Shown here piece by piece: positions 25,859 through 37,875 of a DNA stretch of 64,000 nt (positions are counted from its first letter, which is position 1; each line of letters opens with the position of its first letter). The notes beneath the pieces are model-generated. The model saw only the letters and a program-made list of their open reading frames with translations, had not been told where the DNA came from and did not search any database. The position numbers were made by a program, and so were the translations under genes. The stretch is from Octopus vulgaris. Its lineage: Eukaryota. The stretch lies in NCBI GenBank assembly GCA_951406725.2, contig OX597817.1, forward strand, positions 51,336,001 to 51,400,000, read 5' to 3'.

Positions 25859-27538
<1,680 letters not shown>

Positions 27539-29063
27539 GGCGTATTTCTCGTGTTTTTGGATCCGAGACAATGGTGCATACCCTTTTAGCTAAATTGAAA
27601 GGGATATTTGTCTTGGTGTGTTTTGGGTGGCATGAACTAAAGAGGAGGTATTGTTGTGAGTCTGTAGGTTTGTGGTAGATGTCTGTTATGATTTGGTTCT
27701 TAGGTGTTTTTATAATTAGGAGATCAAGGAATGGGAGATGATGTTTGCTTAATTCCATAGTGAATTGGATGTTGGGATGTATGTTGTTTAGTATGGTTTT
27801 GAATTCCAGGAGTTTTTCATAAGGTTCTTTCCATATGATGAAACAATCATCTAAATACCTTTTCCAGTTTTCCATTAGGTAGGTGTGGAAAACATGTCCA
27901 AATTTCTGGCTTGATATTTCATAGAGTGACAGTTCGAAGTAACCCATTATGAGGTTCGCAAGGACTGGTGCAGCCTTGGTACCCATCGCAATGCCACATT
28001 TTTGACGGTAGTGTGTGTCGTCGAAGAGAAAAAATTGTTTGTCAGAATGAACTTAAGAGATTCTGTAATAAAAGACTTGTTAATGCGGTCAGGGAATGTC
28101 TCTGGGTGTTTTTCTAGCCAGAAGTCAATTGCCTCTATACCATACTCATGTGGAATGTTGGTGTAGAGGTTGATGACATCAAAGGATACCAGGAGTGCCT
28201 CCTCGTTAACTGTTTTCGGGAGGTGTTTGAGCATGTCCAGATCATCCCTAATGAAACTTTTGATGTGGGTAAGGAAAGGTTTCAAAAGGATGTCTAGGAA
28301 GTTACTCAGGCGGTGTGTTTCACAGGAGGTACCAGCCACGATGGGCCTTAGTTTTAGGTCCTCCGGTGCTTTGATGTTGATGTGGATGTCAGTGGAGAGT
28401 TTGCAGGCTTCGGTGATGTATTTGTTTTTATGGATTTTAGGAAGGCCATAAAAAAGGCTGGGCTTGCATTTGAAAATGGTGATATAATCCCTTTCCTTTT
28501 CTGTGAGTCCTTGACCGTGTTGGCGTATGAGTGTGGTGAGGTTTCTGATTGTTTTTTGCTGTTTGTAGTTGTTAATAACCTCATAGAAAATGTTATTGTT
28601 AAGCATGGAGAACACTAGGTGTTTATAAAATTCCGTGTCCATAAGGACCACAGCACTCCCTTTGTCCGCTTCTTTGATGGTGAGGTTTTTATCCAGTTGT
28701 ATGTCACGTAGGTTTTCCCATTCTTCCTTACTGAAATTGGATTTTACCTTGGTTTTGCTTGGGGTAAAGGGGAGACTCTGGATGTGTTTACAGAAATCGT
28801 CCAGTGTTTTATTTCTCCCTTTTGGTGGTAGGAAGTTGCTTTTATTTCTGATCAATGAGTCGTCCCCATTGTTGATATCTGTCAAAGCTTCTGTTAGGCG
28901 AAGTTTTCTGCAGAATTCAGAAACGTCATCCTTGACCTCCGGGGGTTGGGTGTTCTTGGGGTGGGTGTGAATTTCAAACCTCTTGCTAGGATGTTGATTT
29001 GGGTTGGTGTCAGTGTTTTGCTGGAGAGGTTTATAATTTTTGTTTTCTTATTTTGGGTCTGTG

Positions 29064-30555
29064 TTAGCGGTGGTGTTTGTATTTTTCCCCTCTGTCTAAA
29101 AAATGGTTGTTGAGGTAAGGGGTGTATTCTTTGTTAAAGTTCTGGTTGTATGTGTAGGAGTGTTTTTGGGTGGGGAGGTTGGAGGGGGGTAGGTAGTTGT
29201 CGTATTTGTGTTGGTATGGGATGCGATGGTGTAAGGATTTGTGAGAAATGCGATGGGTTTGTGGGTGTGTGTCTGGTAGATTGTATGGGGGGATGTAGGG
29301 GGGTATGTAGTTGTGGTGATTGGGTTCGTGTGGGATGTGAGGGTTTGGAGATCTGTAGGAGATGTGGTAGGAATGTGGTTGTTGGATGGGTGGACTATAG
29401 GGGGTTCGTTGGGTGGGTCTTATATGTATCGGTGTGGGTAGGATGCCTTGTTTGTTATTAGTGTGAGGGAGGGGAGCCTTGAGGGGGGATAATTTCTAGT
29501 GTATGGGAGGTTCTTGAAGGTTCTAATCGGTGGGGGAGGGGTGTTAGAGTGATTGGAAAACCAGGTTTTGTGGTGGGTCTTGTTTGAGATGTTTCGGGGG
29601 GAAAGGGTTTTTTATATGGTTGGGGGAGGTTGTGTCCTGTTAGGAGGGGGTTTGGAGAGTATGTGTATTTGAGGTGCGGTTTGGAATGGTGTTTATGGGG
29701 TACAGTGGAAGTCTGTGTTGTGGGTACTTTTATGAATGGGTTTTTGGATTTATGGTTTAATATGAATTGTGTTTCATAGTTGAGGAAGAAATCTTTGTTG
29801 TTTTCCCAGCGTTTGAGGGAGGTTCGTTCTTCCTTTTCACATTCATCTTTCCATAGTTTAATAACAAGTTCGAGGGGCTGTTCGTTGGTGTGTGAGGTTA
29901 GTTCTAGAAGTATCTCATCGTCTATTTTTGTGTATTTTTGTTCGTGGTTTTGTGCTCTGAGTTTTAGAAGTTCTACTTCGGTTTTCATTTTTTCCAATGT
30001 TAGTTTTTCTCTTAGGGAGCGTTGTTTTTCAGGTTCGTCTGGGATGTGTTTGATTTGGAATTTTCGGGGTAGTATGATAGGGGAGGAGTTTAACCATTTG
30101 TCGTAAATATCAGCTTTGTTTTGGTTTTTGAGCATGTTCCAGAAGAGAAGTTTTCTGTTGTGTAGTTTCTTAGTCCAAGTAGTGATGATCTGGTTTTTAA
30201 TGCGTTGTGCTGGGGTTGAAATGTGTTCCTTCTGTGTGTTGAGTGGTGTCTGAGGTCTCTTTGGCGTTGAATTGGTAAGTAGAGTTTTCAGTGTAGTGTT
30301 GATTTCATTTAGGTTTACATCTATCTTATCCGAAAGTAGAGTTTTCAGTGTAGTGTTGATTTCGTTTAGGTTTACATCAATTTTATCCGAAAGTTGTTGA
30401 TGATGGTTGTTTTCTGAATTGTCCCGGGATTGAAGGAGAAGTTCGTCAATTTTTTTGGAGAATGTAAGTAGATGTGTATTGAGTACTTTGAGTTCTTTTA
30501 GAATGGTCTTATTGGTGACTGTCTCTGTAAGAGTGCTCTTGTTTTTCGGAGGCAT
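29064..30555 (-). CDS. PLE upstream ORF1 (coiled-coil, Pro/His/Tyr-rich tail), frameshifted near 29460-29600
   Basis: 365-aa ATG ORF with helical K/E/L-rich heptads and a 19-aa duplication LSDKIDVNLNEINTTLKTL. A second frame is open from about 29495 (NNKQGILPTP...) to NNHFLDRGEKYKHHR* at 29064. Confidence 0.75.
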
Positions 30556-30583
30556 TCTGAATCACACGTGTGGTAGAGGGTAC

Positions 30584-32154
30584 AGATCAATAAATGGTGG
30601 GGTTGTGTTGACCGCACGTGGAGAAATGATAAGTAAGGAAAAATTTTTTTAAAAATGCAGAATGCTCAAATGAAAGAAAATTTTAATAAAATGAGAAAAT
30701 GATAAAATATATAAATATATATATTTATTCAACCGGTTTTCGTCAATGTATGACTTGTCAAGAATATTTATGTTTTAAGAAGTTTTTTTAAAAATTAGAA
30801 AAGGGGAAAAAAAGAAAATTGCAATGTTTTTTGTAAAAGAATAATGATAAAAATGTACAAAAATTAAAAAATAAGTTCTCCGATACATTGTGAGTTCGTT
30901 GTGTATCTTGAGTTTTATGGTTGTTTACCAAAAAATTACCTTGAGGTGTTAAGATCCAAAGGGATTAAGAGCATGTGATGTGTTGTGTTGTTAAATTCAG
31001 CATGTTGCAGGACAGGAAGTAGTAGTAATTGTGGTCCTGGTTCTTCAGTTCCTGTGTTGTGAGTAAGGGGAGACAACTCTTTTGAGTTCTTCAATAAAAC
31101 CCAAATTATAAAACTATCATTTTAGCTTCATTTGCATTATCTTTTTTATATAATTGCTTGTTAACTTAACTTTCAGATTTTAACACTTTATTTATATTAT
31201 TTTCTAATAATATAAAACTGCATAGACAATTGCATTTCAAATTGTCATATCATTTATAATAAAAATGATAGTAGTAACAACAACAATAGTGAAAATGATA
31301 TTTAAAGAATATAAGTTTTAGCTTGAAGTGGTGAATGCATGGTATCTTTATATATTTGTGTTAGTCCATCCATGAAGAGTGAGGTAGAGAAAGGAAGTTT
31401 GATCAACGAGGAGTTTGCATATTAAGTTGTGTTTGGAATTTTTCAATAAAGAGATTCTCCTTGTTAATTCTCTCCTGTGTGGTGATCCCGTCTTTACATT
31501 GGTAGAAGGGGAATATATAGAATTTGGGGTTTAAGTCTTTAGCACATGAGTCTAAGTGGTCACTCAGTGGAATTTGTCGGTATTCCGGGAGATTTATTTG
31601 TTCTTTATGCACCGTTACTCGTTTACGTAACGGGAGACTCGTTTGTCCCACATAATTATGTTGGCAACCAGCGCATGTGAGAACGTAGATAAGGTTCTCG
31701 GAGGAACAGGAGAAGTTAGTCTTGATTTTAAACTTCGTACCTTGTTTGAAGGTAAATTCAGAGCCTTCAAGTAGAAAGGGGCAGGTACCACAGTTTGAGC
31801 GTGCACATTTTTTTACTGTTGGGGGTGGATGTGGTGTGTGAAGTTTGGCATTTGTCAAGAGTTTTTTTAAAGATTTGTGTTGCCTTTTGCATTTGAGGAT
31901 TTTGTGTGTATTTATAATGTTTTTCATTTTTGGGTCTGTTGACAGTAGACTGAGGTTTTGTATGATTGTGGTGTATGCTTCGATATTTTTGGGGTTGTGG
32001 GTGGAAATGTATGGAAGTATTTTGAGGTTGTGTGTGGTGTTAGGTTGGGTGGTTATCAGTGTAGTGTTGTCTAGTTCTTTGGCGCGTTTTATTCCATACT
32101 CTATAAGGGTGGAGGGATATTGACGTTGTAATAGTGTTTTTTTGAGGTCTTGAA
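30584..32154. repeat. pseudo-LTR copy 2 (5'-truncated tandem copy, includes the 251-aa EN ORF 31403-32158)
   Basis: Direct repeat of 25969-27538. Confidence 0.97.
30726..30766 (-). ncRNA. hammerhead-like motif, copy 2
   Basis: Identical to 26111-26151. Confidence 0.6.
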
Positions 32155-32351
32155 ACATTGCAATTTTCTTTTTTTCCCCTTTCTAATTTTTAAAAAAACT
32201 TCTTAAAACATAAATATTCTTGACAAGTCATACATTGACGAAAACCGGTTGAATAAATATATATATTTATATATTTTATCATTTTCTCATTTTATTAAAA
32301 TTTTCTTTCATTTGAGCATTCTGCATTTTTAAAAAAGTTTTTCCTTACTTA
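32153..32351 (+). repeat. inverted partial pseudo-LTR (rc of about 26015-26213) with hammerhead-like copy 3 at 32215-32255
   Basis: Direct reverse-complement match, with a short A microhomology at the junction. Confidence 0.93.
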
Positions 32352-33645: not shown

Positions 33646-36600
33646 TCAGAATTTGGGCACTATGGCCCACTCAAGTAGAGAGTTATTGTTTACAGAGACA
33701 TATCCGGGTGTAGGGGGTTTATCCGGGATTTCTTGAAGGAATCTGTCCAAAGACTTCTTGAACCCTATAGGGTCAGTTTCTGTTTTAATGTGTTTTGGTG
33801 TAATGTTAAAGAGAGCGGGGCCAATTGAGGTGAAATAATTGTGCCGTATTGTTGTTATGAGATGAGAGTGCGATTTTTGTTTTGGGCGGATGGCACGGGG
33901 CCCAAGCCTTGGATGTACCTTAAAGGTGATGCCAACATCATTTGGGCAATGCTGATGGAATATTTTCCACATCATGCAGATGATGTAGCGCTCACGACGA
34001 CGTTGGAGAGAATAGAGTTTTAGCTTTTCTAGCCGACCCCAATAGTCGAGGCCTGTCATGCCATCTATCTTTTTTGTGATTGCCCTTTGAGGTGCTTCAA
34101 CTTTTATGATACCTTGTATTGTGTGGGGAGACCACAGTGGACAACAGTATTCAAGGTGGGGTCGGGCAAAAGTGGAGAAGAGAAGGATAATGGTGTGGAT
34201 ATATCTCGACTGGAAAGTTCTGAGAATCCAGGAACACATTCTGCGGGCCATGTCAACTTTGGTGTTTATATGAGTGGCCCAGCTTACGTTGTTGTCCACA
34301 ATTACTCCCAAGTCTCTGATGTTGTTGGACGCCGCGAGAGTTTCACCTGAAGGAAGGGAGTATGGGAGTTTCAGGGCATCCTCTTTTCCAAAGTGGATTA
34401 GCTCAAATTTATCCTCGTTCAGCAGCATATTGTTTTTTTCTGCCCATTGGATAACAGCCAGTAGATCTGACTGAAGGCATGTCCGGTCACTCGCCTCATT
34501 TATGACCTTCTGTAGCTTGGAGTCATCTGCAAAGATTTTTATGTTGCTGTGCTTGATGATGTCATTAATGTCATTAATGTAAATGATGAAAAGAAGTGGG
34601 CCCAGCATAGTGCCTTGCGGAACGCCACTACTGACTTTGGCTGGGCTTGATTTTACCCCTTCAACTACAACATGTTGAGATCTGTCTGTCAGGAAACACT
34701 TAATCTATTTCAGTATCTTTCCAGAGACACCAATGTTGGATAGTTTTTTCAATAGGATCTTGTGATCGACCCTGTCGAAGGCCTTACTGAAATCAAGGTA
34801 GATGACATCGGTGTTGGAGCCCTCTCCCAAAGCTCTCAAAATGTCCTCAAAGTGATGCAGGAGCTGCGTTAGGCAGTCCCTTCCATTACGGAACCCATGT
34901 TGGTTGGAGATCAGCCGTCTGTTGCTTTCCAGAAATTGGGTTATTCGAGATCTCACCACCCTCTCAAATACCTTGATGATATGAGAGGTGAGTGAGATCG
35001 GACGGTAATTCACTGCAAGGGACTTGTTTCCCTTTTTGAAAACTGGGACAACAGACTGGGACAGAAGGTTTTTTGGAATATAGCCAGCATCCAGTGAGTT
35101 TCTCCACAGATTAGCAAGGGGAGATACAAGTTGGTGTCGACACACCTTCAGGACACAAGCAGGGAACCTATCGGGGCCTACTGCTGAATTGTGTTTTATT
35201 TCGTTTATCGCCGCTAAGACATCAGGGGCACTAAACGTTATGTCCGATATAGTGTGTTGGGGGTTGACATCACTGATACAGCCCAGATCGGCCATATCAG
35301 GATTGCTGAAAACAGAGCAGTATTGTTTCTGCAGTATCTCGGCCATGGATTTGGCATTATCTTGGAGAGTGCCAGTTTCGTCAATTAGAGGGCCTACAGT
35401 GGAGACAGTGACCCTGCGTTTCCTCGCAAATGAAAAGAACACTTTGGGGTTGAGTTTGATTTTTTCAATGGCCCACTTCTCCTCAGCTGATCTTTGGTTA
35501 TTGATGAGGGTCTTCATGCATTGTTGGAGGTTATATTTTTTGGATTCAAGCAGTGCGATAGCCGTCGAATGTGTGTGTTGCTGTTGGCAGTACTTTAGCT
35601 TGTTAATTTTTTTGTTTGTTCTTTTTATTTTTCTGATAATGGTTTTTCTGTTTTGGGGGATTCTGCACTTTTTGTTCACAGGTCTTGGTGGGGAGTGTTT
35701 TGCACATATGTCTGTGACGGTGTCTACAAAGATCTGCCAAGATGTTTTATGGTTGGTGGAGATGTGTGTATGTGTAAAGGACCAGTCAACATTTGATAGC
35801 TCGTTCCTGATTGCATCCCAGTTGGCTTTATGGAGATCCATGTTGTCAAATGGGTGGGCTGGAGGAAGGTCACTAGGATTAGCTTTCGGCTGGTGGAATT
35901 TCATGTTACAGAGAACCATGTCATGGTCTGAAAGAAGGGTTTTTTCCACTGTAACGTTATGTATAGTGTTAGTGTGGTTACTAAACACTAGGTCCAAAAT
36001 GTTCTGATGTCTTGGTGCAAGGACAAGTTGGGACAAGAAAAACTCATTCGTAAAGTCGAAAAGTGACTCTGCTGCTTCTTTGTCAGCGGTTGAGGCGGGA
36101 GTGCTTGGTTTCAAACAGTTTGTAGTCCAGTCAACACAGGGTAGATTGAAGTCTCCCATCATGAGTATGTTGCTAGAATGGCACTGTTGAATAAAGCACT
36201 TAATGCTGTTGAGGCATTCTTTAAAGCACAGTATGGGTGTTTGGGGTGGCCTATAGAGCCCAATTACTGTCAGGTCATTGGCTTTGTTGTGCACGGTGAC
36301 TGATTCACAGTAGCCATTGGAGAATATACTATTTCCATCTGCCGTAAATGAATCATGCAGGAAAATGGCAGTTCCACCCTTCCTCCTGCCGATACGATCC
36401 GCGCGGATGGTTGTGAAATTCTTCACTCTCACTTCGGCTTCCAAGTGGGAGTTGTCAAGGTGGGTCTCAGTGAGAATGAAGAAAGGGATGTGGTGTGAAT
36501 GGTTACCAACCCAGTCTTCAATGAATTGGACCTTCCATTTTTGTGCATTGATGGAAGGGCTGACACCTTGTGCATTGAGTAGGAATGTGGAGGTTAGTGT

Positions 36601-36760
36601 AGTGGCTGGTTTTGACTGTTGCAGGGGGCTTGGATTTTTTGTGTGTGTTAGTGGCAGCAATGTGGGGAATTGGTGCACTGGGGTAATAGCATAGGATGGT
36701 GTTGAGTGATGGCTAGAATGTTTTTGTGTATCTCTTTTGCCATGTTCAACATGGCTAAAA
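33646..36760 (-). pseudogene. LINE APE endonuclease-reverse transcriptase with an in-frame stop (probably TGG to TAG) at 34705-34707
   Basis: LLNAQG, LTETHL, GLYRPP, MGDFN, LSDH, NYRPISLTS, YLDFSKAFD, GVPQG..LGPLLF, FADD. It reads GKILK*IKCFLTDR across the stop, in frame with the 320-aa ORF. Confidence 0.93.
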
Positions 36761-37875
36761 GAATTTTCCTGCTTAGGGAGCAGTTTTTGGCTGGAGGTGT
36801 GGTTGCACTGTTGGATAGGGTTGTAGTTTCCACTTTTGTTGTTGTTGTTTTTGTGTCTTCCTGAAAAGACTGGACCAGCATTACTGCAGCATGGTGTGTT
36901 TCTATTTTTATTGTTATTCAGGTTTGTGTGTTGGCTTGAGGCCCCGTTTCTGTTTGTGCGTCGGGTCCCTGGAAGATGAGTGAAGGGACAGTCACTCAGT
37001 AGACATGTTCTCTCACGTTAGGAATACCGGCAGATTTTGGGACTCCGAGTTGTGTGTGTTTTGAATTTCGATTTACTATTTGGTGGTGTTGATGTTATTG
37101 TGGGATGCGTGCTTTGGCCTTGGCCGGTAGTGCGTCTAGTGCCGGGTAGATGCGTGAAGATGCAGTCACTATTTGTGCAGAGTCTCTGGCGCAGTGAATA
37201 GCGGCATATTTGGGGATTTCTTGTTTGTGCCGTGGGGGGTGCATTCTGCTTCCTATGTTTCTTTAAGTTTTTGTTACTGCAGTAGTATTGAGGTGGTGAT
37301 GTGGGGGAAGAGGGCAGTGGTTTCTTATTTGGTTTTCTGTCGGTATTTTTGGTGATAGAAGACGATGGTGGCAGCGGTGGTGATGATGATGATGATAATT
37401 GTGGTGGTTGCTGTGAGAGCGGTGAAAAGATACTGGCATTTAGTGAATCGTCTAGTAAGCTAGAGTTGAGGAGTGGCTGTTGTTGTTCTTGTTGCTGTGG
37501 CTGTTGTTGTTGTTGTTGTGCCTGACCGATGTCAGGGTCAGCCATTGTGCTGGGAACCAGGAGTGGCTCATTCTGTTGTTGTTGTTGTTGTGGCTGCTGA
37601 TTTTCTAGCTGTTGTTGTTCTTGAACTGTGAAAATATGTAGAAGCTTTTCATAATGGCCTCTTAACAGTTTGAAAGATACTTCGATATGTTTCAACTTGC
37701 TACGAATCTGTTTGACGGATCGTGTGTTGACCACTTGTGATGTTTTTTCGGCAATCTCATTCAAACACAAGACATTTAGATTTTCTGTTTGGGAAAGAGA
37801 GAGCCATGTGTTTATTAAAACATCAATTTCGTTATCAGACCAATTTCGTCTGTTGCAGGCCTGCAAGTTAGTCAT
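36761..37875 (-). pseudogene. LINE ORF1-like region: Myb/SANT-like N-terminus, polyQ/S/P, two CCCH-type fingers, with an in-frame TAA at 37018-37020
   Basis: WSDNEIDVLINTW...RSVKQIRSKLKHI; ICRYSLRQRLCTNSDCIFTHLPGTRRT and ICRYS*RERTCLLSDCPFTHLPGTRRT. Confidence 0.75.

Follow-up and report, generated by a model that had tools for sequence, protein, structure and literature searches.

In the endonuclease-deficient (EN-) Penelope-like elements (PLEs) of the Athena/Terminon type, a first open reading frame (ORF1) is reportedly joined to the reverse transcriptase (RT) by a frameshift at a T6A heptamer. Canonical endonuclease-bearing (EN+) PLEs are described as single-ORF elements in excerpts of PMC8557442 and PMC11167929, and an earlier note on the DNA studied here took this to be established. 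This has published exceptions: excerpts of PMC5408684 and PMC3905857 report an esterase ORF1 in Neptune-like PLEs, and an excerpt of PMC12602865 reports a short, non-overlapping ORF1 in a killifish Neptune. Two-ORF Coprina EN- PLEs are likewise in print (PMC13159263, in excerpt), and the Fig. 1 legend of PMC8557442 states that ORF1 can be split off by a frameshift with a pseudoknot. Here we describe a minus-strand PLE in a 64,000-nucleotide stretch of the Octopus vulgaris genome (GenBank assembly GCA_951406725.2, contig OX597817.1, positions 51,336,001 to 51,400,000; hereafter the window), whose RT-endonuclease frame (ORF2) overlaps a helical ORF1 in the -1 register. Conservation of this junction indicates that a programmed -1 frameshift at U UUU UUA very probably yields the RT-endonuclease as an ORF1 fusion. 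Given such frameshifting, its stimulation by ribosome collision is probable. The two together, a -1 frameshift stimulated by ribosome pausing at the ORF1 stop and not by RNA structure, form the explanation that we moderately favor.

The window element resembles the Neptune clade, as characterized in excerpts of PMC8557442, in its GxKF- and DKG-containing RT, CX2-5CxxC linker, CCHH-type C-terminal GIY-YIG endonuclease, pseudo-long terminal repeats (pseudo-LTRs) with an inverted 5' piece and (TA)n target. Unlike the single-ORF Neptune elements of that description, it has a helical ORF1 of about 450 aa, behind which the RT-endonuclease, lacking its own start, lies in the -1 frame. This ORF1 has no match in Pfam, PDB or BFVD. 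The separation of a coiled-coil-type ORF1 from the RT by a frameshift is shared with Athena/Terminon and with the two-ORF Coprina EN- PLEs (excerpts of PMC8557442 and PMC13159263). Those elements, as excerpted, have no fused endonuclease, are telomeric and have a pseudoknot named in the legend, whereas no conserved structure was found in the window lineage.

On rechecking the minus strand, the heptamer, both TAA stops and the ORF1 start ATG all lie where the earlier note had placed them (Table 1). The tail of ORF1 translates as HFLDRGEKYKHHR*. The heptamer TTTTTTA is in the X XXY YYZ phase and would give entry into the -1 frame, which translates as FFRQRGKIQTPPLTQTQNKKTKIINLS...LARGLKFTPTP with no ATG before the motif; its position and phase are kept across families. 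TTTTTTA occurs 59 times in the window against 31.5 expected. The heptamer alone is thus not rare, and the evidence lies in its conservation in place and phase.

Searches with ORF1 revealed six more families in the same genome, with 50-60% identity in the ORF1 core and 56-57% in ORF2. The proportion of synonymous differences (pS) between families is 0.57-0.83 outside the tail, so that synonymous sites are near saturation. The heptamer is invariant over the seven families and ORF1 reads (H/P)FL across it, a triplet choice for which codon usage alone gives about 0.016 per family, the families being partly dependent. The RT frame is closed 4-35 codons upstream of the heptamer in these families. 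The I[IV]NL motif was found in 37 of 40 loci, every one of which has TTTTTTAG upstream (37/37), with a spacing of 59 or 68 nt (2 mod 3) in 36. The ratio of nonsynonymous to synonymous substitution (dN/dS) of the ORF1 core, 0.17-0.22, reflects purifying selection, and both overlapping ORFs are under such selection. Intact ORF pairs are present in natural copies (e.g. L061, L064, L071, L075, L081, L082, L086 and L095). ORF1 is open for 497 aa from its ATG in copy L099, and ORF2 is intact over 770-784 aa in L061, L071, L075, L081, L082, L086 and L095. All of the 30 nearest genomic copies match the window exactly over a 17-mer that contains the heptamer.

A profile of the ORF1 core retrieved 935 homologue clusters (50% identity) at E<=0.001. 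Among the best 150 homologues, the longest has 553 aa and none is fused to an RT (RT motif in 0/152). In the 79 distant homologues of at least 330 aa, FL lies within the last 35 residues in 64, as compared to 6, 5 and 1 in the residue intervals before it. Codons for K, E, Q, M and W cannot end in T and hence cannot supply the first T of the heptamer; none of these residues precedes FL (0/67, background 21.6%, P about 8e-8). When metagenome contigs were scanned for the RT, 80 of 249 loci were kept; an ORF1 match accompanies the RT at seven of them, each with T6A or T6G in the -1 register. The earlier note had proposed a two-ORF, gag-pol-like EN+ PLE with a -1 slip, and had named conservation of the heptamer and register across copies and species as its check; with both kept in seven families and in 7/7 of these metagenome loci, the proposal is strongly supported at the level of sequence. 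ORF1 scans of metagenome and viral contigs and an RT scan of viral contigs returned zero matches, and Rfam yielded no frameshift element. Several ORF1 homologues end in FR or FFE instead of FL (P0054, P0070, P0015 and P0139; P0059 and P0083), suggesting other slippery heptamers.

A sister lineage that shares the Zn-like linker has TTTAAAC (13 loci) or TTTTTTA (2 loci) at the ORF1/RT overlap, in the same register; its ORF1s are unrelated to that of the window in profile comparison (probability 0.1). The T TTA AAC loci are L131, L132, L134, L135, L138, L140-L142, L144, L150, L155, L157 and L163, while L129 and L130 read G GTA AAC and then TAA. In the TTTAAAC lineage the ORF1 stop is mostly at +0 or +3, and five loci have a GACC..GGTC hairpin 8-10 nt downstream (z = -4.3 in L144). 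That one textbook slippery heptamer has been swapped for another at this position argues strongly, if indirectly, for -1 frameshifting. As a control, 21 other PLE loci, mostly without the linker, have an in-frame Met in 18/21 and an overlapping upstream ORF in 1/21. Two-ORF frameshifting may be the rule, not the exception, among Zn-linker (Neptune-like) EN+ PLEs. The ORF1 C-termini of L136, L138, L142 and L168, which also end at a slippery heptamer, have SGNH-hydrolase-like motifs by eye (GDSN, G..D and DG.H), in agreement with the reported esterase ORF1 of Neptune-like PLEs; Pfam and PDB searches with these C-termini gave no match.

As for the features of a canonical -1 site, the heptamer lies in phase within an ORF overlap, but the expected stem-loop or pseudoknot 5-9 nt downstream was not found. 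The earlier note had seen no strong hairpin, and none appears in folding calculations (z = -0.97 in the window copy, -0.5 to +0.8 across the seven families). No conserved or significant fold was found at 14 helical-ORF1 sites (best z -2.1 and -1.6) with a model of local, nested base pairs. Candidate pairings near the site, GAGGGG/CCUCUC or CCCCUU/GAGGGG, were rejected as neither significant nor conserved.

The distance from the heptamer to the ORF1 stop has a sharp lower edge. FL lies within the last 50 residues in 85 of 129 ORF1 homologues of at least 200 aa, and the FL-to-stop distance in these 85 is exactly 10 codons in 26 and 20 codons in six. Distances of 7-9 codons do not occur, one short protein has 6, and the rest are scattered over 11-46. 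Among the 67 long proteins, 10 codons is the minimum. In the seven families of the octopus genome the heptamer-to-stop distances are 30, 60, 30, 33, 30, 90 and 60 nt. At codon +11, all seven have TAA, TAG or TGG. The +4 base after the stop is C in 5/6 ten-codon DNA sites and in 0/7 sites with other spacings (hand count). The ten residues after FL are unrelated among the 26 ten-codon proteins.

Precedents exist. In the engineered E. coli reporters of Smith et al. 2019 (PMC6815119, in excerpt), a stop-paused ribosome stimulates the -1 slip of the trailing ribosome, most strongly when the spacer has 9 codons. Ribosome queues at human and zebrafish stops have a 30-33 nt repeat and favor a +4 C (bioRxiv 710491, in excerpt), and in HIV-1 the slip takes place while the A site holds the post-heptamer codon (PMC4373837, in excerpt). 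Here the post-heptamer codon is 10 codons from the stop, and from this spacing together with the E. coli, queue and HIV-1 precedents we infer collision-stimulated frameshifting. The window site shares with the HIV-1 gag-pol site U UUU UUA GGG, as excerpted from PMC4373837, the heptamer, the preference for a following G and a structural ORF upstream of the polymerase ORF, but HIV-1 has a stem-loop where the window has an unstructured spacer and a stop 10 codons on. With the E. coli reporters it has in common a slippery heptad that precedes a slow stop by roughly the length of a ribosome, and the lack of an RNA stimulator. Those reporters, in the excerpt of PMC6815119, are artificial and bacterial with a 9-codon peak, whereas the window arrangement is natural, conserved in a eukaryotic retroelement and 10 codons long.

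In the proposed mechanism, most ribosomes would make ORF1p alone, a predicted helical RNA-packaging or oligomerizing protein with a disordered tail. Slow termination at UAA-C or UAG-C would hold the next ribosome at a distance of about 30 nt, so that UUU UUA would occupy its tRNA sites while its A site held the codon after the heptamer. This trailing ribosome would then slip back one base and read into the RT-endonuclease frame; the resulting Gag:Gag-Pol-like ratio could vary with ribosome load. The proposal would explain why the RT genes appear to lack a start codon. On balance we lean slightly toward a widespread animal retrotransposon lineage in which the terminating ribosome acts as the stimulator, the stop being held one ribosome length (10 codons) downstream and queuing setting the ratio of ORF1 to ORF1-RT.

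A number of observations weigh against this account. The spacing differs from 10 codons in 59/85 homologues, and there is little periodicity past the first peak (6 at 20, 3 at 30, many at 21-25 and 31). The +4 C was counted post hoc, on few sites and with related families among them. A constraint on either overlapping frame could account for the 10-codon limit, and a DTRW-like ORF1 tail motif is kept in close relatives. The homologues are protein records, some truncated at contig ends, in which FL is assumed to be TTT TTA, and the 30 nearest copies were picked by similarity to the window. The exceptions among single copies are in-frame fusion in L067 and L110, shorter T runs in L108, L112 and L116, and a stop inside the motif in L079 and L080. 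A +1 register, as apparent in L079 and L080, was considered as the norm of their family (D) and rejected: at 11/16 family-D sites the frame stays open across the heptamer until a stop at +33. The remaining adverse points, a G after the heptamer and an AUG in families D and G, are taken up with the alternatives to which they belong.

The most serious alternative, which we regard as possible though the less likely course, is a -1 frameshift without collision, driven by intrinsic slipperiness and a following G-codon, by weak or long-range RNA structure or by a protein factor. The spacing would then represent a minimal ORF1 C-terminal peptide or a constraint of the RT frame. All of the heptamer conservation fits this, and in most homologues the spacing is not 10 codons. 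The heptamer is followed by G in 7/7 families of the octopus genome and, judged by residue, in 46/67 proteins against an 18.5% background, although an AG splice acceptor would also give this G. Gly follows FL in 25/58 long-spacing as compared to 5/26 ten-codon proteins (hand count), and R(N/H)RDTRW after FL is common to close relatives. However, the ten post-FL residues of the 26 ten-codon proteins are unrelated, so that no peptide motif accounts for the sharp edge, and a minimized overlap would place the stop close to the heptamer, as is mostly seen in the TTTAAAC lineage. The failure to find a conserved fold also speaks against a structural stimulator.

Separate translation of ORF2, through termination-reinitiation or leaky or near-cognate initiation near the ORF1 stop, is improbable. 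It draws on families D and G, whose RT frame has an AUG 12 codons in that overlaps with the +31 codon, on a CUG or UUG at that place in families B and F, and on the shortness of the overlap. However, no AUG precedes the conserved N-terminal motif in families A, B, C, E and F or in L124, L126, L127 and L172, and the invariant X XXY YYZ heptamer 30 nt upstream and the TTTAAAC swap would be left unexplained.

Hardly more credible, and if anything a little less so, is the suggestion of the earlier note that TTTTTTAG is a splice acceptor, with spliced RNA supplying the start of the RT gene. An AG does follow the T run at a fixed phase in all seven families of the octopus genome, and PLEs are known to have introns (Fig. 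1 legend of PMC8557442). However, the AG is missing in L124 (T6GT), L127 (T6AT) and L128 (T6GT, with ORF1 cut off); the first two are among the seven metagenome relatives with an ORF1 match. In 21/67 proteins the residue after FL has no codon starting with G. At an acceptor, moreover, C would be allowed within the tract and the ORF1 phase would be free to vary. No joint into 29096 was found, and in three runs, which we guess to be RNA, single contigs span the junction in unspliced form, although contigs can hide rare forms; none of the listed sequencing runs with the element is on record as RNA, and the status of these three remains a guess. The AG-less loci, the non-G residues, the lack of a joint at 29096 and the unspliced bridging contigs together make splicing unlikely.

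That the frameshift is an assembly error, as the earlier note had also considered, or the decay of a single-ORF element has a practically negligible probability: four other homopolymers of the element are indeed under-called in the assembly, and L067 and L110 are fused in frame, but reads have no indel at the T run and the same register is shared by seven families and seven foreign loci with intact ORF pairs. The four further frame breaks lie at homopolymer runs near 29595 and 29482 (C runs in ORF1) and near 28940 and 28028 (ORF2). Short-read contigs have one extra base at 28028 and 28940 in 4/4 runs and at 29482 and 29595 in the 3/3 covering runs, and zero indels at the T6A heptamer (4 runs, 4 studies). 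Thus the breaks are under-calls of the assembly, whereas the offset between ORF1 and ORF2 is real. Among the 30 nearest copies, one more base is found in 24/30 (T) near 28035, 9/25 near 29483, 8/22 near 29598 and 1/30 near 28941. The break near 28940 is common to 28/30 of these copies and absent from the reads, so that intact copies are under-counted.

Neptune-like elements with an extra ORF1 and PLEs with an ORF1 frameshift are already in print. New is the 10-codon stop spacing, which suggests a natural collision-stimulated -1 frameshift. Our literature search found no account of this ORF1 family, of a slippery site in EN+ PLEs or of the 10-codon spacing, although Fig. 1 of PMC8557442 may already draw an ORF1 and frameshift on Neptune; the search also found no natural conserved collision-programmed -1 frameshift in eukaryotes. 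If the proposal is true, ribosome collision would serve as a natural and easily tested programmed recoding signal, with a spacing fixed in dozens of independent sequences, and the enzyme output of a retrotransposon would be tied to ribosome load and collision-surveillance pathways. The two-ORF layout also corrects the single-ORF picture for a large part of the EN+ PLEs, and a so far unannotated ORF1 family of 935 clusters at 50% identity receives a name.

The window copy is a young, recently active, endonuclease-bearing Neptune-type PLE that spans about 25966-32351 on the minus strand. Its nearest copies are 98-99.8% alike, indicating a young family. The pseudo-LTRs form a direct repeat (30581-32154 versus 25966-27538; 1574 nt, 99.87% identity), and (TA)n tracts bound the element on both sides, matching, in this one copy, the Neptune insertion bias. 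GLKFTPTP, IKEADKG and YLDD are present in the window and its relatives and, with an RVT_1 match, identify a PLE-type RT. The Pfam GIY-YIG match (E=7e-4) is below the curated cut-off; the region reads LIYVLTCAGC..YVG, with two Cys between GIY and YIG. The CX2-5CxxC linker was found in the window and in 5/5 full-length own-family ORF2s examined, and the long spacer from the linker to the next Cys is like the Neptune and not the Nematis rows of Fig. S2 of PMC8557442, compared by eye on that figure. A tree of 39 RTs resolved three groups at 100/99, with Zn-linker elements apart from those without a linker; it was midpoint-rooted, had no named Neptune references and left out three rows in which the search pattern missed DKG. 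Assignment to Athena/Terminon fails, as an endonuclease is present and copies are scattered over many contigs. We class the element as a two-ORF Neptune-like variant, since it is not a single ORF with a start of its own. The hammerhead-like stem of the pseudo-LTRs folds in the window, but the overall z is -0.1 and the core is degenerate. Weak HH9 matches (E=0.25) occur in both repeats of L082 (631-695 and 4871-4935), and an Rfam scan of the window gave no hammerhead match.

Table 1. Positions of the element's features in the window
Feature	Coordinates	Strand	Remarks
Upstream pseudo-LTR	30581..32154	-	Partial tandem: 3' part of ORF2 including endonuclease, and 3' untranslated region
Inverted 5' segment of pseudo-LTR	32153..32351	+	99% inverted match to 30630-30829 (200-nt piece); then (TA)n flank
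Downstream pseudo-LTR	25966..27538	-	Ends in (TA)n target
ORF1, about 497 aa	29064..30555	-	N-terminal amphipathic helices, conserved helical core, low-complexity P/H/Y/N tail
ORF1 start ATG	30553-30555	-	
ORF1 conserved core, residues about 111-280	29716..30225	-	Predicted long helices
TAA closing the RT (-1) frame	29134..29136	-	10 codons upstream of slip site
Slippery heptamer T TTT TTA	29097..29103	-	X XXY YYZ phase of ORF1
Proposed ribosome-pause stimulator	29063..29096	-	Unstructured 10-codon spacer 29067-29096, stop TAA 29064-29066, +4 C 29063
ORF2, -1 frame	26787..29103	-	IINLS/GLKFTPTP, DKG, RT, thumb, Zn-like linker and GIY-YIG in order
RT catalytic motif YLDD	27846..27857	-	Sequence and RVT_1 match
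CxxxxCxxC linker CARSNCGTC	27165..27191	-	Upstream of GIY-YIG; Neptune/Nematis mark, compared by eye with Fig. S2 of PMC8557442
Degenerate hammerhead-like core	26123..26146 and 30738-30761	-	UUGACAA (for CUGANGA), stem GUCA/UGAC, GAAA; pattern match

The earlier note had called ORF1 a coiled-coil protein. An AlphaFold2 model from 123 sequences is all-helical, with five long helices (mean predicted local distance difference test score, pLDDT, 87; core block 89-98), but the coiled coil itself is weakly supported: designed coiled coils and GCN4 give weak matches (best E=0.003) that fit an N-terminal coiled coil. ORF1 has no Pfam family above the cut-off. Foldseek searches of PDB and BFVD with the first model returned nothing at E<=0.001, and VIA-align with the second model returned generic helical bundles only (best Z 9.0); the lack of a fold match does not show the fold to be new. 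The ESM Atlas offered leads only (best 0.86), among them one cluster mostly from Mollusca. A Gag-like or LINE-ORF1-like ribonucleoprotein role can be proposed for ORF1 by inference only. In ORF1 at 30270-30400 on the minus strand, a short tandem duplication (LSDKIDVNLNEINTTLKTLL twice) makes the second helix longer in the window family only. In a contig of run X2 with a loose end at 30452, the ORF1 5' region is joined to 28 letters resembling WKRYLD of another PLE RT on the opposite strand, possibly an inter-family chimera. Adjoining the element is a separate, nearly intact long interspersed nuclear element (LINE) of the apurinic/apyrimidinic (AP)-endonuclease/RT type, at 33646-37017 on the minus strand, with frames of 770 aa and 352 aa.

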